Assembly: GCA_037189525.1 (NCBI GenBank)
Contig: JBBCJC010000001.1
Span: 192,001 to 256,000 of the forward strand
Origin: Gemmatimonadales bacterium
GTDB taxonomy: Bacteria > Gemmatimonadota > Gemmatimonadetes > Gemmatimonadales > GWC2-71-9
Length of the DNA stretch: 64,000 bases
Direction of reading: 5' to 3'
The number at the start of each line of letters is the position of its first letter. Position 1 is the first letter of the stretch. Below are positions 21,345 through 49,830 of this stretch, piece after piece. A model generated the notes under the pieces. It made no database searches. It saw nothing but the letters and a program-made list of their open reading frames with translations, and was not told where the DNA came from. The translations under genes were made by a program, and so were the position numbers.

Positions 21345-21345
21345 C

Positions 21346-28049: not shown

Positions 28050-28072
28050 GGCAGGCGTCTCGCCCGAACCGG

Positions 28073-29574: not shown

Positions 29575-29607
29575 AGTTTTCCGCATCTCGAACTATGGCG
29601 CAGTCGA

Positions 29608-29623
29608 AGCAAACACGATGCCG
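29608..29623 (-). promoter_or_regulatory. Putative sigma54 promoter for the GT cluster 29574-25733
   Basis: Minus strand CGGCATCGTGTTTGCT; palindromic site TGCTGC-N6-GCAACA at 29649-29666 upstream. Confidence 0.7.
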
Positions 29624-29736
29624 CGATGCAATACATACCCATCATGGGTGCTGCGTCAACGCAACAGTACCCACTACTCGCGGTCAGTTGCGTCAAAGTC
29701 CGGGGGGAGCAGAGGCACGCATCGCGGACTGGCCCC

Positions 29737-31297: not shown

Positions 31298-34200
31298 ATG
31301 ACTGCCGTATCAACCCGCAAAACCGGAACGCCCTGGACCGGAGGCGTCGCCCAGCGAATTGCGATGCACCTGGAAACTTCTCCGCGGGCAGTGGCGGTCC
31401 AGTGGGGTGACGAGCAGCTCAGTTACGCCGAGCTGGATGATCGCGCCGCTCTGGTGGCGGGCCGGCTCAAGCAGGCCGGGGTCCGTCCCGGCGACTTCGT
31501 AGGCCTTTACCTGGACCGGGGTGGCGAGATGGTCACCGCGATCTTGGGCATTCTCAAGGCCGGTGCGGCCTGGGTCCCGCTAGATCCGGCCTACCCGCGC
31601 GACCGGATGGCCTGGATTCTGGCCGATTCCGGCGCGGCCGCGCTGCTCACCAGCCGAGCGCACGCGGGCGAACTCGCCGATGCCGAGGTTCGAGAAATCC
31701 TGCTGGACGATGCCTCGGAGGTCGAGCCAGCCGATGCCGTAGCCGTGGACGCCGACACGCCGGCCTATCTGATATATACGTCGGGTTCGACCGGCCAGCC
31801 CAAGGGCGTCGTCATCACCCACGGGAACCTGAGCCACTACGCCGCAGCCATCAGCGAAACGATCGGGCTCACCGCCCAGGATCGGTACCTGCACACCGCC
31901 TCGCTCGCGTTCTCGTCCTCGGTGCGCCAGCTATTCGCGCCGCTCGGCGCGGGCGCCTGCGTCATCATCGCGCGGCGGGCCGAGATTGCCGATCCGCGGG
32001 AGCTGCTCCAGGTCTGCCGCCGGGCGCGTGTCACGGTCGTCGACCTGGTCCCGTCGTACTGGTCGCGCCTGATCGAGGCCGCCGAGGCCGATCCGTCACT
32101 GCTCGCCGGCTCGGCGCTCCGCCTGACGCTATCGGCCAGCGAACCGCTGCCGGCGGCTCTGGTGCAGCGCTGGCTGGCGCTGACCGGCGGGCAGACCCGC
32201 TTCATCAACATGTACGGCCAGACCGAGACGGCCGGCATCGTCTCGACGGTGACACTGACGCCGAGCCTGCTGTCCGATGGTGCCGTCGCCCCACTCGGCG
32301 CGCCCTTGCCGCGCACCGAAATCCACCTGCTCGACGAATCGGGGATACCCGTTGCCGACGGCGCCGCGGGCGAGATCTGGATCGGCGGCGATGCGGTCGG
32401 CCCCGGCTACCACAATCGTACGGAGCTGACGGCTGAGCGGTTCGTCGATCACCCTACGCTCGGCCGGCGGCTCTATCGCACCGGCGACCTGGGGGTGCGG
32501 CGTCCCGACGGCCTGCTCACCTTTGCCGGACGGCGCGACAACCAGCTCAAGGTGCGCGGCCACCGGGTCGAGGTCGAAGAGGTCGAGGCCACGCTGCAGC
32601 GCCATCCGCAGGTATCGGCCGCGGCCGTGCATGCGCGCGAGCACCAGGGCGAAGCGACGCTGGTGGCGTTCGTGACCTCCACCGACGGCGCCGCGCCGAC
32701 CGGGCGCGAACTCCGGGAACATCTGCTGCGCTCCGTACCGGAATACATGGTCCCCGCCGCGTTCCAGGTAGTCCTGGCCCTGCCCCGGACACCGAACGGC
32801 AAGCTCGACCGCGGCGCGCTGTCGTCGCTCCCCGTCACCTTAGGAGCCGATCGCGCCGCCTACGTCGCGCCGCGCACCGATGCTGAGCGGGCCATGGCGC
32901 GGATCTGGGAGGACGTGATCGGCGTTGCACCGGTCGGCGTTCACGACCACTTCTTCGAAATCGGCGGTCACTCACTGATGGCCGTGCGGGTGCTGGCCCG
33001 AATCCGTTCGGTGTTCGGGACTGAGCCGCCCCTTCGCGTCCTGTTCGAACAGCCAACGGTTGCCGCGCTCACGGCGGCCGTCGCTGCGCTTGGCGCGGAC
33101 TCGGGTGCCGACGCCGGCATCGGCCAACTGACCGACGGACGCACCGCCCCGCTCTCGTTTGCGCAGGAACGGCTCTGGGTCCTCAATCAGATCGAACCGG
33201 ACAGCGCCGCGTACAACCTGGTCGCGGCGTTTCGGATGCGCGGCGCGCTCGACCGGGGCGCCCTCGAGCGCACCCTGACGGAGATCGTCCGCCGCCACGA
33301 GGCGCTGCGCACCTCCTTCCCCAGCACCGACGGCGTAGCTCGCCAGGTGGTCCAGCCGGTCGGCGAGTTTACGCTGGCCGCCGAGACGATCTCCCCGACA
33401 ACCGACGAGACGCTGACCCGCCGCGCGGCAGAGCTGGCGGCGCAACCGTTCGATCTGAGCAACGGACCGCTGTTCCGGGGCACCCTGCTCCGCGCGGCCG
33501 ACGACGACCACTTGCTGGTCATCGTAATGCATCACATCGTGTCGGACGGGTGGTCACGCGGGGTGCTCTACCAGGAAATCGGCGCGCTCTACAAGGCCTA
33601 CGCTTCGGGCGAGGCATCGCCGCTGGCCGAGTTGCCGATCCAGTACGGGGACTTCGCGGCCTGGCAGCGGGACTGGCTGACCGAATCGGTCCTGGCGCGG
33701 CAGTTGGACCACTGGACCCGCCTGCTGGCCGCTCCACTGCCGACGCTCGACTTGCCGACCGACCGGCCGCGCCCCCCGATTCAGACGTTCAAGGGCGCAA
33801 CGCACCGTTTCGAGATCCCTGCCGAGCTTGCATCCCGGCTCAAGGCGCTGGGCGCGGAAGAAGATGCGACCGCGTTCATGGTGCTGCTCGCGGCCTTCCA
33901 GGCCATGCTGAGCCGCTACAGCGGTCAGGACGACATCATCGTCGGGTCGCCGACGGCCGGCCGGACCCGGCTCGAGACGGAAGGCCTGATCGGCTTTTTC
34001 GTCAACACGCTGGCGCTGCGCACCAGCCTGGCCGGTAATCCCAGCTTCCGCACGCTGCTGGGCCGCGTGCGCGAGGTGGCGCTAGGCGCGTTCCAGCATC
34101 AGGATCTGCCGTTCGAGCGGCTGGTCGAAGGGCTGCACCTGCCGCGCGATTTGAGCCGGTCGCCCCTGTTCCAGGTGCTGTTCATCCTTCAGAACACGCC

Positions 34201-37200
34201 GGTGCATCCGCTGGCGCTGCCGGGCGTGGTCTTGGAGCAGGTCGACGTCGACGCCGGCGCCGCCAAGTTCGACCTGACGCTCTCGCTTGCCGTGCAGGAG
34301 AGCGGCTACGTCGGCCACCTCGAATACAATACCGACCTGTTCGACGCCGCCACCATCGAGCGGCTGGGCAACCACTACGTCACGCTGCTCTCTGCCGCGG
34401 CCGCCGCGCCCGACCTGCCGATCGAACGTCTGGGCATCCTCACACCGGCCGAACGCGTCCAGATCGACCGGACCTGGAACGACACGGCCCGCCCGCTGCC
34501 CAGCGCCGACACCCTGGTGACCCAGTTCGAGCGCCAGGTGGCCCTGACGCCCGACACGCCCGCCGCGAGCTTCGAACACGAGACGCTCAGCTACCGAGAA
34601 CTCAACGCGCGCGCCAACCGGCTGGCCCGGCGCCTGCGCGAACTCGGCGTGGCTTCCGGTGTACCGGTCGGCATCTTTGCGGAGCGCTCGCTCGAAATGC
34701 TGGTGGGGATGCTGGCCACGCTGAAAGCAGGCGGGGCGTATCTGCCGCTCGACCCCGCGTACCCGGCCGATCGGATTGCCTTCATGCTGGAGGACAGCGC
34801 GGCGCCGGTTATCGTCACCCAAGGCCGGCTGGTCGACCGCCTGCCGGCCACGACCGCCAAGGTGCTCCGGGCCGACCTCGACGCGGTGTCGTTTGCGCGG
34901 CTGCCGGATGCAAACCTGGACGGCGGTGCAGCACCAAGCGATCTGGCCTACGTGATCTACACGTCGGGTTCGACCGGACGCCCCAAGGGCGTCATGATCG
35001 AGCACCGCAACGTGGTCAACTTCTTCCTGGGCATGGACGAGCGGATCGGCGGCGACGGGCCGGGAACCTGGCTGGCCGTCACCAGCATATCGTTCGACAT
35101 CTCCGTGCTCGAACTGTTCTGGACGCTGACGCGCGGCTTCCATGTCGTGATCCAGGGCGATCCGGAGCGTGTCCGCGCGCAGACTGGCACACCCCGGTCG
35201 GACCGCAAGCTGGGCTTCAGCCTCTTCTACTTCTCGAGCGCCGCGGACGTTCCGCCCGCCGACCGGTATCGGATGCTGATCGAGGGCGCCAAGTTCGGCG
35301 ACGCGAACGGATTCGAAGCGATCTGGACGCCCGAGCGGCACTTCCATGCGTTCGGCGGGCTGTATCCGAACCCGGCGGTCGTGAGCGGCGCCATCGCGGC
35401 CATCACGTCGCGCATCAAGATTCGCACGGGCAGCGTCGTGTTGCCGCTGCACAGCGCCGTCCGCGTGGCCGAAGACTGGGCCGTGATCGACAATCTGTCG
35501 AACGGTCGCGTTGGGCTGGGCTTTGCGTCGGGCTGGCACGACCGTGACTTCGTCTTCGCGCCGCAGAACTACGAGCGCCGACGCGAGATCATGGCGGAGA
35601 TGATCGACACCGTCCGCCGCCTATGGCGCGGCGAGGCCGTGACCATGCCCGGGGGCGCCGGCAAGGACGTAACGATCTCGACGCTGCCGCGCCCGATCCA
35701 GCCGGAGCTTCCGGTCTGGGTGACCGCGGCCGGCACCACCGCGACCTACGAAAAAGCCGGCGAAATCGGCGCCAATGTCCTGACCCACCTGCTGGGCCAG
35801 AGTCCGGAGATTCTGCGCGAGAAGATCGCGGCGTACCGAGCGGCATGGCGCCGCGCCGGGCATACCGGAACCGGTCATGTCAGCCTAATGCTCCATACCT
35901 ATGTCCATCCGGACATGGAGCACGTCAAAGCCAGGGTCTGGCATCCGTTCCGCGACTACCTGCGCACCTCCGTCGACCTGATCAAGGGTCTTGCGGAGGG
36001 CCGCGGTCAGGACATCCGGTCGGCCGAGTTTACCAAGGAGGACATGGAAGCGCTGCTCGACCATGCCTTCCATCGGTACTTCGATACGAGCGCGCTGATG
36101 GGCACGCCCGAGACCACGTTCGAGATGGTCGAACGGGTCAAGGGCATGGACGTCGACGAAATCGCCTGCCTGATCGACTTCGGCATCCCGATCGACGAGA
36201 CGCTGGCCGGGCTCGAGCACCTGGCAGAGTTGCGGCGCCGCTCGGACGAGTCGTCCGCCAGCGCCTCGGCAGACTACGACATTCCTGCGCAGCTCCGGCG
36301 CTGGAACGTGACGCACTTCCAGTGCACGCCCTCGATGGCGGCCATGCTCACGGCGCAGCCCGAGATCAAGCCCGGCTTTGCCGGCCTGACCAAACTCATG
36401 ATCGGCGGGGAAGCCTTCCCACCCGCGCTGGCCGGTGAGCTGCAGCAGCTGGTCCAGGGTGATGTCATCAACATGTACGGCCCGACCGAAACGACGATCT
36501 GGTCGACGACGCAGCAGTTGGAACCGAACGTGACGTCTGTGCCGCTCGGCACTCCGATCGCGAACACGGTCTGCCGGGTGGTCGACCGGAACCTGGAGCC
36601 GGTGCCCGTCGGAATTGCCGGCGAGCTGCTGATCGGCGGCGCGGGCGTGGTGCGCGGCTACCTCAATCGCGCGGAGCTGACGGCTGAGCGCTTCATCGAC
36701 GATCCGCTGGCCCCGGGAAACCGGGTCTATCGGACCGGCGACCTGGTGCGCTGGCGACCCGACGGGCGGCTCGAGTTCCTGGGCCGGCTCGATCACCAGG
36801 TCAAGATCCGCGGCCATCGCATCGAGCTGGGCGAGATCGAAGCCATCGTCGAACAGCACTCGACGGTCCGTGAAGCCGTGGTGATCGCCCGCGAGGATGT
36901 CCCCGGCGACAAGCGGATCGTAGCATACGTCGTGGCGCGTGGCGCGCAGCAGCCGGACGCCTCGGAGATTCGCCAGGCGGTCGGCGCGCGGTTGCCGGAG
37001 TATATGATTCCGAGCCATGTGGTGGTGCTCGATCGGTTGCCGAGAACGCCCAACCTCAAGGTCGACCGCAAGGTCCTTCCGGCGCCCGATCAGCACGCCG
37101 CGCCTGCCGCAAGCTACGTACAGCCGGGCAGCGAACTCGAGCAGACCATCGCCGCGATCTGGCAGGAAGCGCTCCGGCTGCCGCAGGTCGGCGTCAACGA

Positions 37201-37465
37201 CAACTTCTTCGATATCGGCGGCCACTCGCTGCTGACGGTGAAGGTGCATTCGCGGCTGCGCGCCGCAATCGATCGGCCGGTGTCGATCACCGATCTTTTC
37301 CGCTTCCCGACCGTGCGGGCGCTGGCTGAGCATTTGGGTGGTGCGGCACCGGCCGTAGCCACGACAGAAGTTTCGCAAGCACGGGCCGGCGCCCGGCGCG
37401 AAGCGATGCAGCGCCGGCGTGGGCGTCGCCCGGCCGGTGCGAGTCCAGACTCACAGGATCAGTAA
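31298..37465 (+). CDS. NRPS, A-T-C-A[LLM monooxygenase insert]-T
   Basis: Two YTSGSTG.PKG A domains, two GGHSL carrier domains, C domain HHIVSDG, and a MupA/Atu3671-type LLM (FSLFYF, WTPERHFHAFGGLYPNP) at ~35210-36240. Confidence 0.96.
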   Translation: MTAVSTRKTGTPWTGGVAQRIAMHLETSPRAVAVQWGDEQLSYAELDDRAALVAGRLKQAGVRPGDFVGLYLDRGGEMVTAILGILKAGAAWVPLDPAYPRDRMAWILADSGAAALLTSRAHAGELADAEVREILLDDASEVEPADAVAVDADTPAYLIYTSGSTGQPKGVVITHGNLSHYAAAISETIGLTAQDRYLHTASLAFSSSVRQLFAPLGAGACVIIARRAEIADPRELLQVCRRARVTVVDLVPSYWSRLIEAAEADPSLLAGSALRLTLSASEPLPAALVQRWLALTGGQTRFINMYGQTETAGIVSTVTLTPSLLSDGAVAPLGAPLPRTEIHLLDESGIPVADGAAGEIWIGGDAVGPGYHNRTELTAERFVDHPTLGRRLYRTGDLGVRRPDGLLTFAGRRDNQLKVRGHRVEVEEVEATLQRHPQVSAAAVHAREHQGEATLVAFVTSTDGAAPTGRELREHLLRSVPEYMVPAAFQVVLALPRTPNGKLDRGALSSLPVTLGADRAAYVAPRTDAERAMARIWEDVIGVAPVGVHDHFFEIGGHSLMAVRVLARIRSVFGTEPPLRVLFEQPTVAALTAAVAALGADSGADAGIGQLTDGRTAPLSFAQERLWVLNQIEPDSAAYNLVAAFRMRGALDRGALERTLTEIVRRHEALRTSFPSTDGVARQVVQPVGEFTLAAETISPTTDETLTRRAAELAAQPFDLSNGPLFRGTLLRAADDDHLLVIVMHHIVSDGWSRGVLYQEIGALYKAYASGEASPLAELPIQYGDFAAWQRDWLTESVLARQLDHWTRLLAAPLPTLDLPTDRPRPPIQTFKGATHRFEIPAELASRLKALGAEEDATAFMVLLAAFQAMLSRYSGQDDIIVGSPTAGRTRLETEGLIGFFVNTLALRTSLAGNPSFRTLLGRVREVALGAFQHQDLPFERLVEGLHLPRDLSRSPLFQVLFILQNTPVHPLALPGVVLEQVDVDAGAAKFDLTLSLAVQESGYVGHLEYNTDLFDAATIERLGNHYVTLLSAAAAAPDLPIERLGILTPAERVQIDRTWNDTARPLPSADTLVTQFERQVALTPDTPAASFEHETLSYRELNARANRLARRLRELGVASGVPVGIFAERSLEMLVGMLATLKAGGAYLPLDPAYPADRIAFMLEDSAAPVIVTQGRLVDRLPATTAKVLRADLDAVSFARLPDANLDGGAAPSDLAYVIYTSGSTGRPKGVMIEHRNVVNFFLGMDERIGGDGPGTWLAVTSISFDISVLELFWTLTRGFHVVIQGDPERVRAQTGTPRSDRKLGFSLFYFSSAADVPPADRYRMLIEGAKFGDANGFEAIWTPERHFHAFGGLYPNPAVVSGAIAAITSRIKIRTGSVVLPLHSAVRVAEDWAVIDNLSNGRVGLGFASGWHDRDFVFAPQNYERRREIMAEMIDTVRRLWRGEAVTMPGGAGKDVTISTLPRPIQPELPVWVTAAGTTATYEKAGEIGANVLTHLLGQSPEILREKIAAYRAAWRRAGHTGTGHVSLMLHTYVHPDMEHVKARVWHPFRDYLRTSVDLIKGLAEGRGQDIRSAEFTKEDMEALLDHAFHRYFDTSALMGTPETTFEMVERVKGMDVDEIACLIDFGIPIDETLAGLEHLAELRRRSDESSASASADYDIPAQLRRWNVTHFQCTPSMAAMLTAQPEIKPGFAGLTKLMIGGEAFPPALAGELQQLVQGDVINMYGPTETTIWSTTQQLEPNVTSVPLGTPIANTVCRVVDRNLEPVPVGIAGELLIGGAGVVRGYLNRAELTAERFIDDPLAPGNRVYRTGDLVRWRPDGRLEFLGRLDHQVKIRGHRIELGEIEAIVEQHSTVREAVVIAREDVPGDKRIVAYVVARGAQQPDASEIRQAVGARLPEYMIPSHVVVLDRLPRTPNLKVDRKVLPAPDQHAAPAASYVQPGSELEQTIAAIWQEALRLPQVGVNDNFFDIGGHSLLTVKVHSRLRAAIDRPVSITDLFRFPTVRALAEHLGGAAPAVATTEVSQARAGARREAMQRRRGRRPAGASPDSQDQ

Positions 37466-37468
37466 GCA

Positions 37469-40400
37469 ATGAGCGAGCAGCAGCTTCCCCCGGGATCGGC
37501 CGAGACCGATATCGCCATCGTCGGCCTGGCCGGCCGGTTCCCGGGCGCCCCCGACGTCGCCACCTTCTGGAAGAACCTTCGCGACGGCGTCGAGAGCGTC
37601 ACCTGGCTCACCGACGACGAGTTGCGCGCCGCGGGCGTCCCGGACGAGCTGCTGGCCGATCCCGATTACGTCCGCGCCTCGTATCAGATGCCGGACATGG
37701 CCGGATTCGATGCCGGGTTCTTCGGCTTTGCGCCGCGGGAAGCGGCCATCATGGATCCGCAGCAGCGCCACTTTCTGGAACTCGCCTGGACGGCCATGGA
37801 GCACGCCGGGCACGCGCCGGAGCGCTTCGGCGGATCGGTCGGCGTCTTTGCCGGCTGCGGCGCCAACATCTACATGATGCTCAACCTGCTCACCAACCCC
37901 GAGCTGGTCGAGAATGTCGGTCTCTTTCTGTTGCGGCATACCGGCAACGACAAGGACTTCCTCGCCACCCGGGTGTCGTACCTGATGAACCTGCGGGGGC
38001 CGAGCGTCAACGTGCAGACGGCCTGCTCGACCTCGCTCGTAGCGGTCCACATGGCGGTCCAGAGCCTGCTCAGCAACGAGTGCGACATGGCGCTCGCCGG
38101 GGGCACGACCGTCAAACAGCCGCATCCGGTCGGCTACCTGTACAAAGAGGGTGAGATCGTGGCGCCGGACGGCCACTGCCGGTCGTTCGACGCCAAGGCC
38201 GAGGGCACCGTCTTCGGCAGCGGAGCCGGCGTCGTCGTGCTGCGGCGGCTGGCCGACGCGATTCGCGACGGCGATACCATCCACGCCGTGATCAAGGGAT
38301 CCGCCATCAATAACGACGGCGCCCAGAAGGTCGGGTATCTGGCGCCGAGCGTGGATGGACAGGCGCAGGCCGTCGCCGAGGCGCTCGCGCTGGCCGACAT
38401 CGATCCTGAGTCAATTCAGTTCGTCGAATGCCACGGTACCGCGACGCCGGTCGGCGACCCGATCGAAGTGGCTGCGCTGACCCAGGCCTATCAAGGCGCA
38501 GGAGCAGAGCGCACCGGGTACTGCGCCCTGGCGTCGCTCAAGTCGAATGTCGGGCACCTCGATACCGCTGCCGGCGTTGCGGGCGTGATCAAGACGGTCG
38601 AGGCGCTCAAGCATCGGCAGATCCCGCCTTCGCTGCATTACACCGAGCCGAACCCGGCCATCGATTTTGCGTCGAGTCCGTTCTTCGTCAATGACACGCT
38701 TCGCGAATGGACCACCGACGGCGGGCCGCGTCGCGCCGCCGTGAGTTCACTCGGCGCCGGCGGCACCAACGCCCACGTCATCGTCGAAGAAGCGCCGGCG
38801 CTACCGCCCTCCGGGCCGTCGCGCGAGCATCAGCTCTACGTGCTTTCCGCCAAGACCCCGACGGCGCTCGACACGGCCGCCGCCAACCTGGTGGCCGCGC
38901 TGCGCACCAGCCAGGACGCCCCGGCCGACGTGGCCTTTACGCTGGCGCAGGGCCGCCAGGCGTTGGCGCATCGCCGCGCCGTCGTGGCGAAGAGCGCCGC
39001 GGAGGCTGCGGACCTGCTCGACAGAAACGACCCCAAAGTCGTACCGACCGCCCAGGTATCGGATCGCAAGCGCACGCTGGCCTTCATGTTCGCCGGCGGC
39101 GGCGCCCAGTACGCGGGCATGGGTGCCGACCTCTACGAAGGCGAACCGGTTTATCGCGCCGCCGTCGACGAGTGTATTGCCCTGCTCCAGCCGCAGCTCG
39201 ACTGGGATCTCAAGACCCTGCTGCTGGCGCCGCCGGCCGATCGCGAACGCCTGGGCGAAGAACTCGAACGGCCGTCGCGCTCGCTGCCCTGCCTCTTCAT
39301 CACGCAGTACGCGATGGCCAGGCTGTGCCTGGCATGGGGCTTCGAACCCCAGGCCATGATCGGCCACAGTATGGGCGAGTACACCGCCGCGCATCTGGCC
39401 GGCGTTTTCTCACTCGCCGACGGCCTGGCGCTGGTGACCCTGCGAGGCAAGTTGTTCGAACGGATCCCGCCGGGCGGGATGCTCAGCGTGCCGCTGGCTG
39501 CCGAAGAACTCCAGAAGCGGCTGCCTGCCGAGCTGTCGATTGCCGCGATCAACGCGCCGGAGCTCTGCGTTGCTTCGGGCCCGCTCCAGGCGCTCGATGC
39601 GCTGGAGAAGGCACTTGCCGCCGACGAGATCGACTGCCGCCGGGTCCGCATCAACATCGCGGCCCACTCGGCGATGCTCGAGCCGATCCTCACGGAATTC
39701 GGCGCGTTCTTTCGCCGGATCACGCTGAGCCCGCCGACGCGGCCGTTCGTATCCAACGTCACGGGCGACTGGATCACGCCCGAGGAGGCGACCAGCCCGG
39801 AATACTGGGTCCGCCACCTTCGCCATACGGTGCGGTTTGCCGACGGCATCGGAGTGCTGCTGCGCGATGAAGGCCGCGTATTGCTCGAGATCGGCCCGGG
39901 GCGCGTGCTTGCCACGCTGGCATCCCTCCACTCCGATCGGAAGGCCGACCAGCCGACGCTGACCTCGATGCGGCATCCGGACGAAGCCGGATCCGACGTG
40001 GCCCACGCGCTCACCATGGCGGGCCGTCTCTGGCTCGCCGGCGTGACACCCAATTGGAACGGTCTCTGGAAGGGTGAACGCCGCCGGCGGATTCCGCTGC
40101 CGACCTACCCGTTCGAGCATCAGTCGTATTTCATCCAGCCCGGCAAGGGCGCCGTGACCAGCAAGCCGTCGCTGACTCGGCGGAACGATGTCGGTCAATG
40201 GTTCTACGAGACCGCCTGGGAGCGGGCTCCGCTGGCCGGAAGGACCGCGCTGGCAGCCGGGACGCGGTGGCTGGTCTTCCGCGACGAACAGGGCCTGGGT
40301 GCGTCGCTTGCCGCGCGACTGGGACGCGACGGGACCGTGATTTCCGTGCTGCCCGGCACCAACGTCCGGCAGGTCGATGCCACGACCTATCAGGTGAACC

Positions 40401-43108
40401 CGGACCAGCCCGACCAGATGACCGAACTGGTGGCCGCGCTCGTCAAAGACGGCGGCGTGCCGGCCCGGATCGTCCACACCTGGAATGCCGGCCCTGCCTC
40501 CGCAGGCGACCAGAGCAACGGCCGGGAGTTCTACAGCCTGCTTGGTTTGCAGCAGGCGTTTGCAGCCGAAGGCGTCGACGACGACATCCGCCTCGATGTC
40601 GTGACGACGGCCATGCAGCGTGTCGCCGGCGAGTCTGTCCTCGAACCGCGGCGCGCGCTGGTGCTCGGCCCGGTTCGCGTCATCCCGAAAGAGTTCCCCA
40701 ACATTTCCACCCGGAGCATCGACTTCTCGGGCCCGGGTACGCCCGGCTGGTTCGAGGCGCGCGCCGTCGAGCAGCTGGTTGCCGAACTCGGCGCTGACTC
40801 GGACGCCGAGGCAGTGGCGTGGCGCGGCACGGACCGGTGGGTCGAAACCTACGCACAAACTCCACTGCAGGCGGCGGGCACCGGACCGGTCGTGCGCGAT
40901 GGTGCGGTCTGCCTGATCACGGGTGGCCTCGGCGGCCTGGGCCTCGTCATTGCCGAGGACCTGGCGCGGGCGGCCAAGGTCAAACTGGTGCTGCTCAGCC
41001 GACGTGGGCGGACGCCCGACGCCGAGCCCGCGATCCGCGGCTTGGAGAGCTTGGGCGCCGAGGTGCTGGTGCTCGCCGCAGATGTTGCGGATTCGGCGCA
41101 GCTCCGCACCGCTGTCGCGGAGGCGCGGCAGCGCTTCGGGCCGATTACCCACCTGCTGCACGCCGCCGGCGTCATCGAAGATGCGCTGATTCCCATGAAG
41201 GAACCGGCTTCGGCCGGGCGGGTCTTTGCGCCCAAGATCCAGGGCACCCTGGCGCTCGACGAGGCGCTGGTCGGGGAACCGCTCGAGCGCGCAGTCGTCT
41301 TCTCATCACGCGGCGCCGTGGCCGGGGTGGCCGGTCAGGTCGACTATACCGCAGCGAGCGCGTTCCTCGATGCCTGGGCCGAACGGAAGGCCGTGCTCGA
41401 TGGAACACCGGTGCTCTCGATCGGCTGGAGCGCCTGGCAGGGCGTCGGTCTGGCGGCCGGACAGGCCGGCAGCGCCGCCAAGGGGCGTCCCACCGACCAT
41501 CCGTTCCTCGACAGTCGGCTCGACAACGGTGAATCGACCGAGTTCCGGAGCGTGCTCAGCACGGAGACGCATTGGCTGCTCGACGGGCATCGGATCAAGG
41601 GCGCCGAGGCGCTGATTCCCGGCACCGGATATCTCGAGATCATCCGCGCGGCGGCGGGAGAAGGGGCGCAGCAGGATCCGATCGAACTCCGCGACATCTT
41701 CTTCATTGCGCCCTTCATGGTTCACGGTACGGACCGGCGGGAGTTGCGGGTCACGGTCGAAGGTGAGCCAGGTACGGAGCGTGACATCGTCATCGAAGGT
41801 CGCACGCCCGGTACCGCCGAGTGGGACGAGCATGCCCGCGCCGTCGCGTCACCGCTCGCGGGCACCGCACCGCCCGCCCAGGACGTGGCCGCCATCCGAG
41901 CTCGGTGCGCCGCGCGGCGCGTGACCTTTGCCGGTCACCACGACCGCGAACACCTCGTGCTCGGCAAGCGGTGGGACAATATCACCCAGCTCGACTACGG
42001 CGCCGGCGAAGCGCTCGGAACCTTCGCGATGCCCGAGGAGTTCCACGCCGAGCTGCCGGTCTACCGGCTCCACCCGGCGCTACTCGACGTGGCCACCGCC
42101 TGCGCGCAGGCCTTGATCCCCGATTTCGACTCGGAGCGTGACTTCTACATTCCGGTCTCGTATGGACGGGTTCGCATCTGGGACGCGCTGCCCGCCGCGT
42201 GCCTCAGCCATATCCGGCTCCAGCCGGCCGTGGAGGAAGGGCAAGACACCGCGGTCTACGACGTCACGCTGCTTGCTCCGGACGGTCGTGTACTGGTCGA
42301 AATCAACGACTTCACCATGATGAAGGTGAAAGACCGGGTCAAAGTCGGTCATGACTCCGGTGAGCGCTCGGCGGCGCAGCCGCTGCAGTTCCAGGGCGCC
42401 ATGGCGCCGGACGAGGGCCTCGACGCCTTCCGCCGGCTGTTGGCCTCGGGCACGGTAGGGCACGTCATCGTGTCGCCGCAGGACCTGCCGACCTACCTCC
42501 AGGCACTCCGGATCCCGCCGGAACCCGTCGAGCGCGCCGCGCCGCCGGAGCCCGAGCAGCCCCCGATCGACGTAGCCCCGATCGAGGCGGTCCTGGCTGC
42601 GCACGAAGCCGTTCATCAGGCATTTGTGACGGCCCATCGGGAGCGGACCGGGACGATCCGGATTACCGCGTTTGTGCTCTTCGAGCTGGGCGAGCAGGCG
42701 ACGATTTCCGAGATGCGTCGGTTCCTCAAGGGGAAGGTGCCGGACGACATGATTCCGCAGCACCTGATCGAAATCGAGTCGGTTCCGCTCGGCGCGGACG
42801 GCAAGGTCGATCGGGCCGCCCTGCCCGACCCGTTTGCGGGCGCCGACGACTTCATCGGCCCGCGCACCGAGATGGAGAAGACCATCGCCGGAATCTGGAA
42901 GGACCTGCTCGGCGCCTCGCGGATCAGCATCCATGATAATTTCCTCGACGTCGGCGGCCATTCACTGCTGGCCATGCGGGCCGTCTCGAGGATTGCCAAG
43001 CAAACCGGAGTACGTTTGAATCCGTCGGTGATGACACTGCATACGCTCGAACAGATCGCAGCCGAGTGCGCCGAAAAGGCCGGCTCGGCGGCGGGGGCCG
43101 GGCGATGA
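37469..43108 (+). CDS. Type I PKS module, KS-AT-KR[DH]-Asub-T, no thioesterase
   Basis: KS (TACSTS, HGTAT, KSNVGH), AT (GHSMGE), KR (TGGLGGLG, GQVDY), DH (HRIKGAEALIP, HPALLD), terminal GGHSL carrier. Confidence 0.95.
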   Translation: MSEQQLPPGSAETDIAIVGLAGRFPGAPDVATFWKNLRDGVESVTWLTDDELRAAGVPDELLADPDYVRASYQMPDMAGFDAGFFGFAPREAAIMDPQQRHFLELAWTAMEHAGHAPERFGGSVGVFAGCGANIYMMLNLLTNPELVENVGLFLLRHTGNDKDFLATRVSYLMNLRGPSVNVQTACSTSLVAVHMAVQSLLSNECDMALAGGTTVKQPHPVGYLYKEGEIVAPDGHCRSFDAKAEGTVFGSGAGVVVLRRLADAIRDGDTIHAVIKGSAINNDGAQKVGYLAPSVDGQAQAVAEALALADIDPESIQFVECHGTATPVGDPIEVAALTQAYQGAGAERTGYCALASLKSNVGHLDTAAGVAGVIKTVEALKHRQIPPSLHYTEPNPAIDFASSPFFVNDTLREWTTDGGPRRAAVSSLGAGGTNAHVIVEEAPALPPSGPSREHQLYVLSAKTPTALDTAAANLVAALRTSQDAPADVAFTLAQGRQALAHRRAVVAKSAAEAADLLDRNDPKVVPTAQVSDRKRTLAFMFAGGGAQYAGMGADLYEGEPVYRAAVDECIALLQPQLDWDLKTLLLAPPADRERLGEELERPSRSLPCLFITQYAMARLCLAWGFEPQAMIGHSMGEYTAAHLAGVFSLADGLALVTLRGKLFERIPPGGMLSVPLAAEELQKRLPAELSIAAINAPELCVASGPLQALDALEKALAADEIDCRRVRINIAAHSAMLEPILTEFGAFFRRITLSPPTRPFVSNVTGDWITPEEATSPEYWVRHLRHTVRFADGIGVLLRDEGRVLLEIGPGRVLATLASLHSDRKADQPTLTSMRHPDEAGSDVAHALTMAGRLWLAGVTPNWNGLWKGERRRRIPLPTYPFEHQSYFIQPGKGAVTSKPSLTRRNDVGQWFYETAWERAPLAGRTALAAGTRWLVFRDEQGLGASLAARLGRDGTVISVLPGTNVRQVDATTYQVNPDQPDQMTELVAALVKDGGVPARIVHTWNAGPASAGDQSNGREFYSLLGLQQAFAAEGVDDDIRLDVVTTAMQRVAGESVLEPRRALVLGPVRVIPKEFPNISTRSIDFSGPGTPGWFEARAVEQLVAELGADSDAEAVAWRGTDRWVETYAQTPLQAAGTGPVVRDGAVCLITGGLGGLGLVIAEDLARAAKVKLVLLSRRGRTPDAEPAIRGLESLGAEVLVLAADVADSAQLRTAVAEARQRFGPITHLLHAAGVIEDALIPMKEPASAGRVFAPKIQGTLALDEALVGEPLERAVVFSSRGAVAGVAGQVDYTAASAFLDAWAERKAVLDGTPVLSIGWSAWQGVGLAAGQAGSAAKGRPTDHPFLDSRLDNGESTEFRSVLSTETHWLLDGHRIKGAEALIPGTGYLEIIRAAAGEGAQQDPIELRDIFFIAPFMVHGTDRRELRVTVEGEPGTERDIVIEGRTPGTAEWDEHARAVASPLAGTAPPAQDVAAIRARCAARRVTFAGHHDREHLVLGKRWDNITQLDYGAGEALGTFAMPEEFHAELPVYRLHPALLDVATACAQALIPDFDSERDFYIPVSYGRVRIWDALPAACLSHIRLQPAVEEGQDTAVYDVTLLAPDGRVLVEINDFTMMKVKDRVKVGHDSGERSAAQPLQFQGAMAPDEGLDAFRRLLASGTVGHVIVSPQDLPTYLQALRIPPEPVERAAPPEPEQPPIDVAPIEAVLAAHEAVHQAFVTAHRERTGTIRITAFVLFELGEQATISEMRRFLKGKVPDDMIPQHLIEIESVPLGADGKVDRAALPDPFAGADDFIGPRTEMEKTIAGIWKDLLGASRISIHDNFLDVGGHSLLAMRAVSRIAKQTGVRLNPSVMTLHTLEQIAAECAEKAGSAAGAGR

Positions 43109-43896
43109 ACCCGTTTTTCTTCGGTTCATCGAAGTCCCCGCTCTACGGCGTCTACCATCCGCCGCGGGCAGGCAGCGGGCCGGCCAAAGCCGTCCTGACC
43201 TGCTATCCGCTCGGCGCGGAGTACATGCGGGCGCATCGCGCGTTCCGCCAGCTGACGACACTCCTGGTCAAGGGCGGCACGCACGTTCTGCGGTTCGACT
43301 ACTTCGGCACCGGCGACTCGGCCGGCAACGGCGACGAGGCCCGCATCGTCCGGTGGCTCGACGACATTGCGACCGCAATCGACGAACTCAAAGAAATGGC
43401 GCAGGTGCCCGCGGTGACGCTGGTCGGCCTCCGCCTGGGCGGCACGCTCGCTGCTTTGGCCGCCGAGGGTCGTTCCGACGTCGAGCAGGTCGTGCTCTGG
43501 GATCCGATCGTCCGCGGCAATCGGTACGTCGAGGAGCTGGTCGGCAAGCATCGGGCGGAACAGGCGGCGCGAGGACGCACCGCGGCGCCCGGTACGGCGG
43601 GCGTCCACGGCTTCCCGGTTACCCAAGCCCTCCAGAAAGAGCTTGGCGCAATCGACCTGCTGACCTGGCCGGGCACCGGCATCCGGCGCATCGACGTGGT
43701 CACCTCATCGGAGCAAGCGGATGCCGACGCGCTGGTCGCGCAGCTGCGCGATCGAGGCGCGATGGCCGCCGGACTGGTGTGCCCGAGCAACGGACAATGG
43801 GACGAGTCGGATGCGTTCGGCTCGGCGCTGATCCCCCAGAGCATCATTCAGGGCGTGATCGGCTGCGTCAATGGTGAAGGAGTGCAGGTCGCATGA
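43105..43896 (+). CDS. Alpha/beta hydrolase fold protein, exosortase-associated hydrolase-2-like
   Basis: RFDYFGTGDS.G, elbow GLRLGG (Arg at the nucleophile position), VLWDP; ATGA overlap with the PKS. Confidence 0.88.
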   Translation: MNPFFFGSSKSPLYGVYHPPRAGSGPAKAVLTCYPLGAEYMRAHRAFRQLTTLLVKGGTHVLRFDYFGTGDSAGNGDEARIVRWLDDIATAIDELKEMAQVPAVTLVGLRLGGTLAALAAEGRSDVEQVVLWDPIVRGNRYVEELVGKHRAEQAARGRTAAPGTAGVHGFPVTQALQKELGAIDLLTWPGTGIRRIDVVTSSEQADADALVAQLRDRGAMAAGLVCPSNGQWDESDAFGSALIPQSIIQGVIGCVNGEGVQVA

Positions 43897-44789
43897 GAGA
43901 GAAAGTCCTCAAGTTCGGGGCGAGCCGGGGGCTGGTCGGCATTCTGACGGAACCGGCGCCGGGCGGCCCGGCCAAACCGACGGTCATCCTCCTCAATTCG
44001 GGGATTCTGCATCACGTCGGCGCGTCGCGACTGTATGTGCAGATCGCGCGGCGGCTGGCGGCCGCCGGTCATGCCGCGTTCCGTTTCGATTTTTCCGGCA
44101 TCGGTGACAGCGAGTCGCGCAAGGACACGCTTGGCGCGGCCGAAAGCGCCGTGGTCGAAACCCGTGAGGCAATGGATCTGCTGGCAGCCCGCCGGAGCAA
44201 CGATCGCTTCATTCTGTTCGGCCTGTGTTCCGGCGCCGATATGGGATTCAAGGTGGCGGGACAGGATGAGCGCGTCGTCGGCCTGATCCAGCTCGATCCG
44301 TTTGCGTACCGAACGACCGGCTACTACCTGCGCCACTACGGTCCGAAGCTGTTCAGTCCGAGCGCCTGGGTTCGCTTCGTCTCGGTCCGGCTCGCCAAGC
44401 GCCGCACCGCGCGCGAAAAGGCCAACGGTACCGACGAGCCACTCGAATACGTCGCCGCGGAGTACCGGCGAATCTTCCCGCCGCGCGAGCAGGTCGAGGC
44501 GCAGCTGCGCACCTTGGTTGGCCGGGGCGTCCACATGCTCAACATCTTCTCCGACGGGCAGGGCGACCACATCAACCACGGGCCCCAGTACGCCAAGGCG
44601 TTCCCGACCCTCGACTTCAACGGCCAGCTCCAGGTCGACTACGTGCCGTTTGCCGCGCACACCTTCACGGACCTGGGCGATCAGCGCCGGGTGGTCGACA
44701 CGATCGCCGGCTGGGCCGAGCGCGTCGGCCCGGCCATGATGCCCGCGACCGGGGCGGCGGCGGAAGCGGAACTGGCGGCGGCGCGATGA
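43893..44789 (+). CDS. Alpha/beta hydrolase fold protein, exosortase-associated hydrolase-1-like
   Basis: HHVGASRLYV, RFDFSGIGDS, elbow GLCSGA (Cys nucleophile), AHTF. Confidence 0.88.
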   Translation: MREKVLKFGASRGLVGILTEPAPGGPAKPTVILLNSGILHHVGASRLYVQIARRLAAAGHAAFRFDFSGIGDSESRKDTLGAAESAVVETREAMDLLAARRSNDRFILFGLCSGADMGFKVAGQDERVVGLIQLDPFAYRTTGYYLRHYGPKLFSPSAWVRFVSVRLAKRRTAREKANGTDEPLEYVAAEYRRIFPPREQVEAQLRTLVGRGVHMLNIFSDGQGDHINHGPQYAKAFPTLDFNGQLQVDYVPFAAHTFTDLGDQRRVVDTIAGWAERVGPAMMPATGAAAEAELAAAR

Positions 44790-46027
44790 GCGACCCGGCC
44801 GCGCCAGTCGGCAATGAGATCCCACGCCTTCCCGCGTGGAAGACTGCGTTATTTCTGTTCATCCTGCTCGGTGCCGGCGCAGCCATCCTCGAAGGCCTGG
44901 CGCACCTGTACCTCAAGCTCTTTCGCGGGTACGACGGAAAGCATCTGATCCAGTACGAGTTCGACCCGTACAAGAACATCCTCCCGACCCCGAATTACGT
45001 CGATACCCGTGGCATCCAGCACAACTCGGTGGGGTTTCGGCGCTCGAGCGAAGTCACGGTCGAGAAACCCGCCAACACCTACCGCGTGTTTCTGATGGGG
45101 GCGTCGACCGCGTATGGACTGGGTGGACTCTGGCCCCATCTGCAGCGTGACTTCGAAGTCATCGACAACAGCCATACCATCGATGCCTATCTCGAGCGCG
45201 ACCTGCGCGCCGCGTTTCCCGGGATGAACGTCGAGGTCATCAATGCGGCCATTACGAGCACCTGGACCCATCATCACCTGATCTATCTCAATCAGAAGAT
45301 TCTCCGGTATCAGCCGGACATGATCATCTTTCTCGACGGGTTCAACGACTTCTACCACACCACCCCGGGGCACGACCAATTTGCCGCGTATGCGTATGGC
45401 GAGCAGTCGCACCGGATCATGGGCCCGCCGACCCTCACATCGCTGGCGTTCCAAAACTTCTGGTGGTTCTACCGGAAGAGCGCGCTGGTCCACCTGGTCA
45501 CGCGCGAGGCGCGCAAGCTGGGCGGCCTCTTCAGCGGACGGGGGGAACGGACATCGATCGACCCCGACGAGCAGCTGCAACGCCTCCAAGAGATCTTCCC
45601 GGCCAATGCGCTGACCATGGTGCATCGCTACACCATGATCACTAAAGATGCGGGCGTGCTCCCGGTCGTGGTCCATCAGCCCATGCTGATTCTCGAAGGC
45701 CACCGCGCCGCCAGCATGGTCGAGATCGAAAAGAAGCTCTTCGATTTCAACGTGTCGTCCTACGTCCCCAACTACGATCAGTTCGCCCTGAAAGCGGCAC
45801 CCTGGGTCGTGGATACGACCCGCGCGGTGGTCGAGCAGAGCGGCGGCACCTTCATCGACGCTACCAACATCTACGGCGGCGAAACCCAGCAGATCTTTAC
45901 CGACTATGCGCACCTGACGCCTAGGGGAAATGAGGTTCTCGCCAAACACATCGAGGGCGTCATCGGACCGATGATCCGGTCGGATGCCCGCGCCAAGGGG
46001 CTCTCGGTCCCCGACTCGCTCCCGTAA
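44786..46027 (+). CDS. Membrane-anchored SGNH/GDSL family protein
   Basis: N-terminal TM helix; blocks GASTAYG, DGFND and DYAH. Confidence 0.88.
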   Translation: MSDPAAPVGNEIPRLPAWKTALFLFILLGAGAAILEGLAHLYLKLFRGYDGKHLIQYEFDPYKNILPTPNYVDTRGIQHNSVGFRRSSEVTVEKPANTYRVFLMGASTAYGLGGLWPHLQRDFEVIDNSHTIDAYLERDLRAAFPGMNVEVINAAITSTWTHHHLIYLNQKILRYQPDMIIFLDGFNDFYHTTPGHDQFAAYAYGEQSHRIMGPPTLTSLAFQNFWWFYRKSALVHLVTREARKLGGLFSGRGERTSIDPDEQLQRLQEIFPANALTMVHRYTMITKDAGVLPVVVHQPMLILEGHRAASMVEIEKKLFDFNVSSYVPNYDQFALKAAPWVVDTTRAVVEQSGGTFIDATNIYGGETQQIFTDYAHLTPRGNEVLAKHIEGVIGPMIRSDARAKGLSVPDSLP

Positions 46028-46041: not shown

Positions 46042-47157
46042 ATGGGCCGTCTCCGTGTCATGCAGGTGACGCAGGACCTTGGCGTCGGGGGACTCGAGCG
46101 CGTCGTGGCCACGTTATGCCACACGATGGACCGCTCGCAGTTCGAACCCTCGGTGCTCTGCCTGCGGGAAATGGGCGCGCTCGCGCCGGCGCTCGAAGCC
46201 GCCGGGATCCCGATCACCGTGCTCGAACAGCCCCGCGACGGTCGCCCCGACTACTTCGCCTACCGGCAAGTCCGCGCGGCGATCCGCGACCAGAAGATCG
46301 ACGTCCTCCACACGCACAACACCCAGGCCCTGCTCGACGGAGCGCTGGCCTCGCTTGGCGGGCACAGACCGCGGCAGATCCATACCGATCACAGCCGAGT
46401 CTGGCCCGACCGGTTCCGCTACCGCGTGCTGGAGCACCTGGCGTCCCACCGCATCAGCGCCATGGTCGGCGTATCCGAGGCGACGACCGCCAACCTGCGC
46501 CGCTATGAATGGATCCCGAAGCGGAAGCTGGTCACCATCCTGAATGGGATCGACCCCGCGCCGTTCGCCCTGCCGCTCGATCTCGATGCCAAACGGCGTG
46601 ACCTCGACGTGGCCGGACGATTTCCGCTCCTCGGTGTGGCCGCCCGGCTCACCCATCAGAAGGGCCACCGGTTTCTCCTCGAGAGTGTGGCGCGGCTCAG
46701 GCAACGATTTCCCGACCTCCTCCTCCTGATCTGCGGCGAGGGCGAGCTCGAGGGGGAGTTGCGCGAAATGACCAAGGCGATGGACCTCGAGCAGCACGTG
46801 CGTTTCGCAGGGGTCCGCCTCGATCTCCATGAGATCCTCCGGGTGCTCGACCTATTCGTGCTGTCATCGGTCTGGGAGGGGCTTCCGATGGTCCTGCTCG
46901 AGGCGATGGCGGCGGGATGCCCGATCGTTTCGACCGACGTGGGTGGTATCAGCGCCACGCTCCAGAGTGGCGTGACGGCGAGCCTGGTCCCCCCGTCCGA
47001 CCCCGACGCGCTGGCCCATGCCATCGCGCACCTGGCAAACGACCACAGACAGCGGAAGATCCAGGCAGACGCCGCCCGGGAGATCTTCGAGGCCAACTAT
47101 AGTGCCTCGGCCATGACCCGCCGCTACGAGCGGCTCTATCGCGGCGAGCGCCTGTAG
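46042..47157 (+). CDS. Glycosyltransferase family 4
   Basis: GGLE, NGID, ARLTHQKG and SVWEGLPMVLLEAMAAGCP. Confidence 0.93.
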   Translation: MGRLRVMQVTQDLGVGGLERVVATLCHTMDRSQFEPSVLCLREMGALAPALEAAGIPITVLEQPRDGRPDYFAYRQVRAAIRDQKIDVLHTHNTQALLDGALASLGGHRPRQIHTDHSRVWPDRFRYRVLEHLASHRISAMVGVSEATTANLRRYEWIPKRKLVTILNGIDPAPFALPLDLDAKRRDLDVAGRFPLLGVAARLTHQKGHRFLLESVARLRQRFPDLLLLICGEGELEGELREMTKAMDLEQHVRFAGVRLDLHEILRVLDLFVLSSVWEGLPMVLLEAMAAGCPIVSTDVGGISATLQSGVTASLVPPSDPDALAHAIAHLANDHRQRKIQADAAREIFEANYSASAMTRRYERLYRGERL

Positions 47158-49650: not shown

Positions 49651-49671
49651 ACACTCATTCGGGAGCAGGGC

Positions 49672-49830
49672 ATGGCCAAGGGATCGCTGGTCGGTGAGTT
49701 GTGGTCGTTCATGAAGGCGCGGCGCAAGTGGTGGCTGGCGCCGATCATCGTCATCATGTTGCTGGTCGGGATGTTGCTGGTGTTCGCCCAGGGCTCGGTC
49801 CTGGCGCCGTTCATCTACACCATCTTTTAG
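49672..49830 (+). CDS. 52-aa membrane peptide, SxtK/DUF5989-like (absent from the ORF track)
   Basis: Translated by hand: MAKGSLVGELWSFMKARRKWWLAPIIVIMLLVGMLLVFAQGSVLAPFIYTIF; GGAG RBS. Confidence 0.9.
   Translation: MAKGSLVGELWSFMKARRKWWLAPIIVIMLLVGMLLVFAQGSVLAPFIYTIF

Follow-up and report, generated by a model that had tools for sequence, protein, structure and literature searches.

The NRPS-PKS assembly line in the window (the whole 64,000-nucleotide stretch of a Gemmatimonadales contig analysed here) has no thioesterase (TE) and, in our reading, is unloaded by two docked hydrolase-fold proteins, HydA and HydB, with an N-acyl-4-aminobutenoyl-type group being transferred to the glycan of a Wzx/Wzy pathway; we put the probability of this reading at roughly 0.55. 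The NRPS, PKS, hydA, hydB, SGNH and GT4 genes are all intact and lie where the first-pass annotation placed them, tightly coupled at gaps of 3, -4 (ATGA), -4, -4 and 14 nt (Table 1). As also described there, the block lies between Wzc, OPX and exosortase genes, which occupy 18.9-25.8 kb together with polyprenyl-phosphate sugar transferase (PGT) and EpsI genes, and Wzx and Wzy genes (54.5-58.3 kb). The Wzx/Wzy-dependent locus is complete, with PGT, glycosyltransferases (GTs), Wzx, Wzy, Wzc and OPX all within 18.9-59.6 kb. Contigs from the possible source sequencing run span positions 29000-48999 with 0 differences, and three sequencing runs from other studies give depth in 30/30 bins, so that the block is no assembly artefact. 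Between the exosortase genes and the NRPS lie glycosyltransferase genes on the opposite strand and a divergent gap of 352 nt, which places the two in separate transcription units; a promoter and terminator scan of the sequence stayed at chance level (2 vs 1.8 and 10 vs 9.6). The SGNH protein has a single N-terminal membrane segment together with GAS and DxxH motifs and is a candidate periplasmic acyl transferase or esterase.

Table 1. Genes and domains of the locus, in window coordinates.
Feature	Position	Strand	Remarks
Wzc, OPX export protein, polyprenyl-phosphate sugar transferase (PGT), exosortase, EpsI	18915..25755	+	
GT2, GT4, GT2, GT4 genes	25733..30945	-	divergent from NRPS
NRPS	31298..37465	+	2055 aa
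Luciferase-like flavin monooxygenase (LLM), MupA/Atu3671 family	35216..36235	+	TIGR04020 508 bits, cut-off 244
PKS, type I	37469..43108	+	1879 aa
Asub*, orphan adenylation C-terminal subdomain (AMP-binding_C)	42581..42805	+	between DH and carrier
hydA (HydA)	43105..43896	+	alpha/beta-hydrolase-fold pseudo-enzyme
hydB (HydB)	43893..44789	+	alpha/beta-hydrolase fold, Cys112/His256
SGNH-family protein	44786..46027	+	Pfam 30.8 bits, slightly below cut-off 32.9
GT4 glycosyltransferase	46042..47157	+	final gene of tight run
Carbamoyltransferase, SxtJ-like and DUF5989 small membrane genes	47441..49830	+	second glycan-modifying cassette
GT2, PMT-like membrane glycosyltransferase, FemAB/GNAT protein, acyltransferase-3, Wzx flippase	49849..55984	+	
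Polysaccharide deacetylase, Wzy/O-antigen-ligase-family polymerase	55994..58290	-	

The NRPS has the domain order A1-T1-C-A2n-LLM-A2c-T2, the LLM being inserted in A2 between motifs A4 and A5. Pfam finds neither a TE nor a reductase domain in either megasynthase, as first annotated, but the monooxygenase within A2 and the AMP-binding_C subdomain of the PKS had been overlooked. The earlier assignment of A2 to glycine holds by its code, DILQMGMIWK, read against the reference specificity codes. A1 has the code SSRDLAMGIK, without the Asp235 that binds the alpha-amine, and carries Arg239 and Asp278; no characterised relative that would reveal its substrate was found among PDB or plasmid sequences. 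Its FSSS[VI]RQ motif is common to 15 metagenome proteins. An intact C motif precedes it in 6 of them and a TauD hydroxylase gene adjoins 3, and on this evidence a plain fatty-acyl or non-nucleophilic starter was dropped as the sole option. We likewise set aside a role as lipid anchor, the line having a single PKS module, no ER and no fatty acyl-AMP ligase. The C domain carries the motif HHIVSDG, and T1 and T2 both carry GGHSL.

The LLM likely alpha-hydroxylates the carrier-bound glycyl unit, by analogy with its relatives. The closest of solved structure is the PuwE monooxygenase (6ket, E 5.6e-107), which in puwainaphycin has been proposed to yield a 2-hydroxy group (PMC4219810). A monooxygenase likewise splits the glycine A domain of MtaG and MelG in myxothiazol and melithiazol (PMC11411415), and the window resembles these in having its LLM within a glycine A domain and above the TIGR04020 cut-off. 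The MtaG module is terminal, has a TE and gives an amide, whereas T2 in the window is followed by a complete PKS module; since that PKS is fully conserved, we rejected a terminal amide released by the LLM as the principal outcome.

The PKS runs KS-AT-KR-DH-Asub*-T, and its active-site residues (KS Cys186/His322/His363, AT Ser634/His733, KR Tyr1293, DH His1374/Asp1540 and carrier Ser1832) are invariant in 38/38 full-length orthologues. The A10 lysine is retained in the window's Asub*, yet in just 7 of the 38; residues T1745, R1750, P1788 and F1789 of Asub* are invariant in 42/42. Thr at the T1745 position is present in 42/42 terminal PKS Asub* subdomains, 13/19 terminal NRPS modules and 6/39 others, and A1-type internal modules also have it, the motif thus being enriched and not exclusive. 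Line genes immediately upstream of hydA end in an A subdomain plus T in 60 of 63 cases. In three genomes where the PKS has no Asub* (G420, G330 and G362) a C-A-T module comes after it, and two lines preceding the pair (G370 and Variovorax) end in C-T without a recognisable A.

HydB has the fold, nucleophile elbow (GLCSGA) and catalytic His of an alpha/beta-hydrolase release enzyme, with Cys112 and His256 each conserved in 58/58; its model (pLDDT 85) resembles esterase folds, Cys112 aligns with the esterase serine, and HydB is likely the catalytic acyl-transfer subunit. HydA has GLRLGG, with Arg110 at the nucleophile position in 69/69, and lacks equivalents of the nucleophile Cys and catalytic His of HydB. 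Neither protein has a membrane segment, and both hydA-hydB gene fusions and a T-hydA fusion exist. In a model of the complex the N-terminus of HydA docks on the TxSExRR helix, a conserved element of Asub*, and the carrier serine sits at the HydA/HydB interface. The model score is 0.77 (best of 3 controls, 0.33), a mark reached by 116/157 solved and 2/215 mismatched pairs, counts that apply only roughly to a model built with our own alignments and three chains. Runs share at least 84% of contacts with a partner pLDDT of at least 83, and the best modelled contacts join HydA F6/G7/E94 (94-100% conserved) to Asub* T1745-R1750, the predicted docking site for HydA, which would make HydA the docking subunit. 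PDB searches returned no similar complex, the nearest chains being generic esterases.

In cultured Alphaproteobacteria the closest full-length PKS matches have a formyl-A(Gly, LLM)-T NRPS as their partner and fall with the window PKS into one KS clade (46 rows, SH-aLRT 97, in a quick tree without bootstrap). The two systems have in common the KS-AT-KR-DH architecture with KR before DH, the glycan neighbourhood (5/5 loci inspected) and a glycine/LLM module of 47-57% identity. They differ at both ends: the starter is A1-T-C in the window and a formyltransferase in 3/3 alphaproteobacterial loci scanned, although formyl starters occur in some Gemmatimonadota copies, and all three alphaproteobacterial orthologues scanned end in T-TE with no Asub. 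Since orthologues have a TE in cis and no Asub*, whereas the window subtype has Asub*-T followed by hydA-hydB, the pair appears to stand in for the TE. We consider this replacement highly probable, and the first-pass view of the hydrolases as the unloading device of the line is supported. We take the PKS and NRPS genes of Phaeobacter to be this alphaproteobacterial cluster. Phaeobacter is noted to carry such genes in a passage of PMC4062626 that cites Martens et al. 2007.

Glycan genes recur around the line. Context was counted only where the coding flank outside the line came to 6 kb or more, which left out 12 of 43 loci of this PKS subtype and 2 of 26 of other lines; 9 duplicate loci, two own-genome loci and five very short contigs were also dropped. 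With kin that are not independent and many flanks one-sided, 20 of the 31 loci of this subtype have an export, polymerase, PGT or exosortase gene or two GTs, and 24/31 have at least one glycan gene (GT or export). The background in the line's own genome, 8 of 224 20-kb tiles with glycan genes, may be too low because its profiles were built from these same loci. The expected enrichment in polysaccharide loci is thus seen for this subtype and in the alphaproteobacterial loci; it does not extend to the other lines ending in the pair, of which 8/24 are in glycan loci and 16/24 outside, and for this reason we regard the pair as a general unloading device that is not glycan-specific. The donor also varies within what is otherwise the same Wzc/OPX/PGT locus, which holds this line in genomes G000 and G021. 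G025 has another NRPS-PKS there, and G002 a cassette of an ACP and an amino acid-ACP ligase; each of these systems ends in a HydA/HydB pair, which bears out the idea that such donor systems are exchangeable in one locus. A Variovorax line and pair run directly into OPX-Wzc-PGT.

The 16 pair lines outside glycan loci, together with 7/31 loci of this subtype that have neither GT nor export gene, would also be expected if the product were a diffusible small molecule, either hydrolysed off by HydA/HydB or glycosylated with a single oligosaccharide and exported via Wzx. A Pfam rescan of six of the seven (G014, G271, G389, L092, L123 and L132) found no GT or export gene, and one of these Pfam-negative loci lies on a single-contig genome in which 20 kb was read on each side. 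The cis TE of the orthologues is ordinary-looking and would normally hydrolyse, and the gene most often found directly after hydB is a GT4 (7 loci), both of which fit a released and glycosylated metabolite. Carenaemin of Collimonas arenae is a precedent, a diffusible antifungal that is reported to require both an NRPS-PKS and a Wzy-type cluster and whose core is proposed to be attached to a lipid-carried repeat unit (PMC8313283). It resembles our case in that an NRPS-PKS is genetically linked to a Wzy-type pathway and in the peptide-on-repeat-unit model, and differs in its two separate loci, its own thioesterase gene, its diffusible product and a gene table that lists no HydA/HydB-like pair. 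Against a diffusible product, the 51 window ORFs scanned with Pfam contain no MFS, RND or ABC exporter and no resistance family, as first annotated, and the neighbours are of polymer type (Wzc, OPX, Wzy). Simple ACP/ligase cassettes, which build no scaffold, are served by the pair too, and a nucleophilic Cys whose dedicated partner is catalytically dead would fit transfer better than plain hydrolysis. On balance we think a diffusible product rather unlikely.

Among 21 same-genus genomes, exosortase homologues occur in 13 and the LLM-NRPS in 2, and the NRPS-PKS block is accessory. This patchiness, the block's own divergent promoter region and the intact copies at non-glycan sites could be explained by a mobile cassette that has landed in the variable part of polysaccharide islands and does not act on the glycan. 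We find this improbable, as the glycan context recurs with differing gene orders in Gemmatimonadota, Myxococcota, Gamma- and Alphaproteobacteria, three alphaproteobacterial loci have GT genes placed between those for the PKS and the NRPS, and in the window the SGNH and GT4 genes show translational coupling to hydB.

The first-pass annotation had also linked the block to exosortases and to the glycans of exosortase-sorted proteins, and this part found no support. In the exosortase-A system hydrolase 1 corresponds to TIGR03100, hydrolase 2 to TIGR03101 and the ligase to TIGR03098. These hydrolases are the best NCBIfam matches of our pair and likewise form a tandem pair in an EPS locus, next to a carrier-based donor. 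HydB, however, scores 85 bits against TIGR03100 over nearly its full length (cut-off 168.45) and HydA 102.7 bits against TIGR03101 over residues 16-175 only (cut-off 202.75), so that membership of these families is not supported. The window also differs in having a full assembly line as donor, no TIGR03098 ligase (7 matches in the genome, the best at 246.9 bits, none reaching the cut-off of 592) and a non-XrtA exosortase. The last scores 152.1 bits against the XrtA model TIGR03109 (cut-off 208) and passes the general model TIGR02602 (146.6 vs 105.55), as EpsI does TIGR02914 (111.3 vs 42.8); by these scores it is of the general EpsH subfamily and not XrtA. The exosortase, EpsI and PMT-like glycosyltransferase of the locus and the resemblance to XrtA-system hydrolases would all suit an acyl group placed on glycans of sorted surface proteins. 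Yet an exosortase lies within the fetched flank of just 2/31 loci, G025 has locus, line and pair with no exosortase match, and the genome holds one marginal PEP-CTERM match (PF07589, 21.6 bits, cut-off 20.7). TIGR02595 matched nothing, its control included, and a pattern scan gave 0; a sorting motif other than PEP-CTERM is possible. We judge sorted-protein glycans a very improbable target. In the Bcam1330-1341 EPS cluster of Burkholderia cenocepacia, Bcam1334 is a TIGR03100 protein whose role has been guessed to be that of a quality-control hydrolase (PMC3584217).

For transfer to the Wzx/Wzy glycan we propose the following sequence of events. A1 would load a small acid, probably a dicarboxylic acid or one resembling Asp or Glu, that is bound with no alpha-amine contact of the usual kind, and the C domain, from its intact motif and the glycine code of A2, would couple it to glycine. 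The LLM probably hydroxylates the glycyl alpha-carbon, in the manner of MtaG/MelG and PuwE. With its active sites in place, the PKS would add one ketide from a presumed extender, reduce it and dehydrate it, giving an N-acyl-4-amino(-4-hydroxy)but-2-enoyl thioester. In the modelled complex HydA, itself catalytically dead, holds on to the TxSExRR helix of Asub* and positions the carrier for HydB, whose Cys112 may take the acyl group and hand it to a cytoplasmic acceptor. From the gene context this acceptor would most likely be a nucleotide sugar or a lipid-linked repeat unit prior to Wzx flipping, with a possible detour through the acyltransferase-3 and the membrane-anchored SGNH protein.

Known carrier-based systems for decorating surface glycans are Dlt, AlmEFG and Acinetobacter Alt1/Alt2, and PKSs occur in capsule loci as RkpA and WcbR; in all of these, as in the window, adenylation or ketosynthase chemistry on a carrier feeds a cell-surface polymer. 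They deliver one amino acid or a lipid, and to our knowledge none employs an NRPS-PKS of several modules or a Cys-hydrolase paired with a pseudo-hydrolase. A literature search, outside which most subscription journals fell, found no paper characterising the block, the pair or a docking role for Asub. More broadly, and at slightly less than even odds, we suggest that in several phyla NRPS-PKS lines are interchangeable peptide-polyketide donors for surface polysaccharides, unloaded by a trans-acting Cys-hydrolase and pseudo-hydrolase that recognise a repurposed Asub as a portable "end of line" tag, which could be grafted to a PKS or to an A domain standing alone. If true, this would assign functions to two long-standing puzzles, the hydrolase-1/hydrolase-2-like pair of exopolysaccharide loci and the LLM-NRPS plus PKS cluster that is widespread in Roseobacter-group and rhizobial bacteria. 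It would also add an NRPS/PKS release mechanism with a docking tag derived from an A subdomain, and many "orphan" clusters would give no extractable metabolite because their product is polymer-bound. The cultured carriers Ruegeria, Paracoccus, Aminobacter and Variovorax make the reading directly testable.

A search for longer Asub*-T proteins matched mostly multi-module NRPSs and shows merely that the PKS subtype is common. One gene elsewhere in the window's own genome (C5:1072390-1074525), with no pair nearby, encodes a complete A1-type domain followed by an extra, Lys-less Asub* and T; used as a query against 401 genomes of the phylum at E 1e-150, with few candidates scored, this A-Asub*-T protein matched its own genome only.

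The six genes running from the NRPS to the GT4 glycosyltransferase are tightly coupled, with gaps of 3, -4, -4, -4 and 14 nt, and stand between Wzc, OPX, PGT, exosortase and EpsI genes on one side and Wzx and Wzy genes on the other. The first-pass annotation had described this arrangement and had claimed that neither assembly-line protein carries a TE or reductase domain and that exporter and resistance genes are absent; a domain search of both proteins and an inventory of 51 window ORFs bear it out. The block is real and intact; public contigs span it, and the nearest kin of the window proteins are from Gemmatimonadota. No phosphopantetheinyl transferase gene lies within the window (C1:192001-256000 of the genome G000); the genome has two.

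Coordinates of the block and of related or neighboring features (plain numbers are window positions; C, contig of G000; L, locus; other G numbers, other genomes)
Location	Feature	Observation
31298-37465	NRPS	A1-T-C-A2-T
37469-43108	PKS	KS-AT-KR-DH-Asub*-T
43105-43896	HydA	
43893-44789	HydB	
44786-46027	SGNH	
46042-47157	GT4	
47441-49830	Carbamoyltransferase, SxtJ-like and DUF5989 cassette, likely a glycan carbamoylation unit	Also beside the block in G021, L104 and L106
59984-63703 (-)	Large lipoprotein-like product bearing Big_2 (Ig-like) repeats	No PEP-CTERM-like tail; homologues near the block in 8/31 loci
5123-10295	imuA-imuB-dnaE2 mutagenesis cassette	Ordinary
G000:C2:800000-855000	Separate multi-module PKS/NRPS cluster	Eight KS domains, distant from the window KS; phosphopantetheinyl transferase alongside
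G000:C5:160480-161982 (L014:10480-11982)	Stand-alone LLM-T protein	50% identity to the inserted monooxygenase; T2-like carrier
G000:C5:1072390-1074525 (L015:10388-12529)	Stand-alone protein: complete A1-type domain, extra lysine-less Asub*, T	T shares 60% identity with the PKS carrier; resembles first and last parts of the window line fused; follows hexapeptide acetyltransferase and TonB-dependent receptor genes; no hydrolase pair nearby
L013:2621-10700 (G002)	ACPS-ACP-acyl-CoA dehydrogenase-amino acid:ACP ligase-DUF1839-GH2-fused HydA/HydB cassette	Directly adjoins the Wzc/exosortase locus in G002; also in L011, L075, L142 and on an Azospirillum plasmid

The A1 code of the NRPS is SSRDLAMGIK, in which Asp235 is missing. 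Its motif recurs in 15 metagenome proteins, six preceded by an intact condensation motif and three adjoining a TauD hydroxylase gene, indicating that the A1 substrate can bear a nucleophile. Arg239, Asp278, Leu299 and Met322 resemble Asp/Glu codes, so that the substrate may be Asp or Glu in iso linkage, or else an acid of the malate/succinate type. A domains in which FSSS[VI]RQ replaces the Asp235 motif form a subfamily (L145-L161) found in starter and elongation modules alike and often adjoining TauD or CmlA-like hydroxylases. In relatives, the A1 starter gives way to a starter C domain or to a formyltransferase. The A2 code, DILQMGMIWK, which by comparison with glycine codes probably specifies glycine, fits the pattern DILQ[LMC]GM[IV]WK of all fully read modules containing a luciferase-like monooxygenase (LLM). 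This monooxygenase (TIGR04020, 508 bits), overlooked in the first-pass annotation, interrupts A2 between motifs A4 and A5, and its closest solved relative is that of PuwE, a protein treated in PMC4219810; MtaG/MelG is a split A-MOx module (PMC11411415). Catalytic residues of the PKS are invariant in all 38 full-length copies, and the AT motif IAAH does not identify the extender.

HydB has Cys112 at the esterase serine position, retained with His256 in 58/58 homologues, and is modeled as an alpha/beta hydrolase fold (pLDDT 85). HydA is its paralogue (98.5%), with arginine at the nucleophile position in 69/69, and no membrane segment was found in either protein. Both score under the cut-offs of TIGR03100 and TIGR03101, the families against which the first-pass annotation had proposed scoring them. 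Fusions of hydA to hydB (three genomes: G001, G002 and G008) and of T to hydA (G224) are consistent with a heterodimer. Among plasmids, the top full-length PKS matches are alphaproteobacterial; their NRPS partner has the layout formyl-A(Gly,LLM)-T, their KS domains group within the window's KS clade (46 rows, SH-aLRT 97, quick tree), and they end in T-TE with Asub absent (3/3 scanned), where lines of the window's PKS-Asub* subtype carry Asub*-T and the pair. The pair is likely the line's unloading device.

The orphan adenylation C-terminal subdomain (Asub*) may be its docking tag. An assembly-line gene precedes hydA in 63 of the 71 cases with an upstream neighbor, and in 60 of these 63 the gene closes with an A subdomain and a T (41 PKS, 19 NRPS); of the three exceptions, one is frameshifted, one sits on a contig that is cut and one terminates in C-T. 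Where the PKS has no Asub* (G420, G330, G362), a C-A-T module intervenes before the pair. The A10 lysine is retained in only 7/38 Asub* copies, including the window's, while T1745, R1750, P1788 and F1789 are present in 42/42. The threonine occurs in 13/19 terminal NRPS modules versus 6/39 others, two of those six being line ends beside the pair; because A1-type modules also carry it, it is enriched rather than exclusive. Modeled together as three chains, HydB, HydA and Asub*-T reached a score of 0.77 (best control 0.33), the score mark being attained by 116/157 solved and 2/215 mismatched pairs, counts that apply only roughly. Runs shared at least 84% of contacts, with partner pLDDT of 83 or more. 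The contacts of highest confidence lie between T1745-R1750 of Asub* and residues 4-9 and 90-98 of HydA, and the interface includes the carrier loop with Ser1832. The modeling supports a predicted binding of HydA to Asub*. PDB sequence and fold searches found no such complex. Since G000 has a single pair, the stand-alone A-Asub*-T protein would need the window pair in trans.

We propose, with a probability of about 0.55, that the line builds an N-acyl-4-amino(-4-hydroxy)but-2-enoyl group, that HydA docks on Asub*, and that HydB Cys112 accepts the acyl group and would hand it to a glycan-type acceptor, a nucleotide sugar or lipid-linked repeat unit; an alternative path could run via an acyltransferase-3 and the anchored SGNH protein. 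Domain makeup, residue conservation and gene neighborhood are observed here, and the individual reactions, the docking step and the acceptor are all inferred from them. That docking machine and glycan acceptor both hold is put more tentatively, at slightly under even odds.

Homologues of hydB occur in 42/401 phylum genomes and at 50 loci in the genome collection. Flanks were taken from eight near relatives and 39 phylum-match sites, genes were called, and Pfam labels were assigned from 110 representatives of clusters plus 93 additional ORFs; contexts were counted at the 31 of 43 subtype loci that had 6 kb or more of coding flank outside the line. As anticipated, the block recurs in polysaccharide loci: 20/31 carry either a pair of GTs or a gene of the export, polymerase, PGT or exosortase classes, and 24/31 at least one glycan-type gene, against a background of 8/224 tiles (20 kb each) across G000, of which the window locus supplies three, with profiles derived from the studied loci themselves. 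Genomes are related and flanks often one-sided; the numbers speak for a tendency rather than a rule. Other lines ending in the pair have such context in 8/24, and seven subtype loci are negative, six of them still so on rescanning. A diffusible product, perhaps glycosylated, is an unlikely alternative to glycan transfer. All five alphaproteobacterial orthologue loci inspected lie among polysaccharide genes; three more remote PKS matches lacking an LLM-NRPS do not.

The expected co-occurrence with exosortase was not supported (2/31 loci). The acyl group is very improbably destined for glycans of exosortase-sorted proteins, another suggestion of the first-pass annotation: despite the exosortase gene in this locus, TIGR03109 and TIGR03098 cut-offs were not reached and a single marginal PEP-CTERM match was found. 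The block is accessory: the LLM-NRPS occurs in 2/21 same-genus genomes versus exosortase homologues in 13/21. That it is a passenger cassette is improbable. One wecB/Wzc/OPX/PGT locus type holds the window line in G021, a different NRPS-PKS in G025, and in G002 a cassette of ACP, acyl-CoA dehydrogenase and amino acid-ACP ligase with a fused pair; a Variovorax line and pair lead into OPX-Wzc-PGT.

Carrier-based surface-glycan decoration is known from Dlt, Alm and Alt, and PKSs occur in capsule loci as RkpA and WcbR. The line is probably such decoration in a new form, with a new release mechanism. Carenaemin requires an NRPS-PKS and a Wzy-type cluster (PMC8313283), an EPS cluster contains a TIGR03100 protein (PMC3584217) and Phaeobacter PKS/NRPS genes have been catalogued (PMC4062626). 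Literature searches, mostly outside subscription journals, found no characterization of the block, the pair or a docking role for an A subdomain.

Gene order varies, the NRPS being divergent or after the pair in L034, L126, L127, L123 and L030-L031, and G271 has PKS and pair with no NRPS in 20 kb either side. A complete PKS-Asub*-T with pair (L128) lies in a bin labeled Klebsiella pneumoniae, on a contig whose low GC (38%) suggests a binning error.
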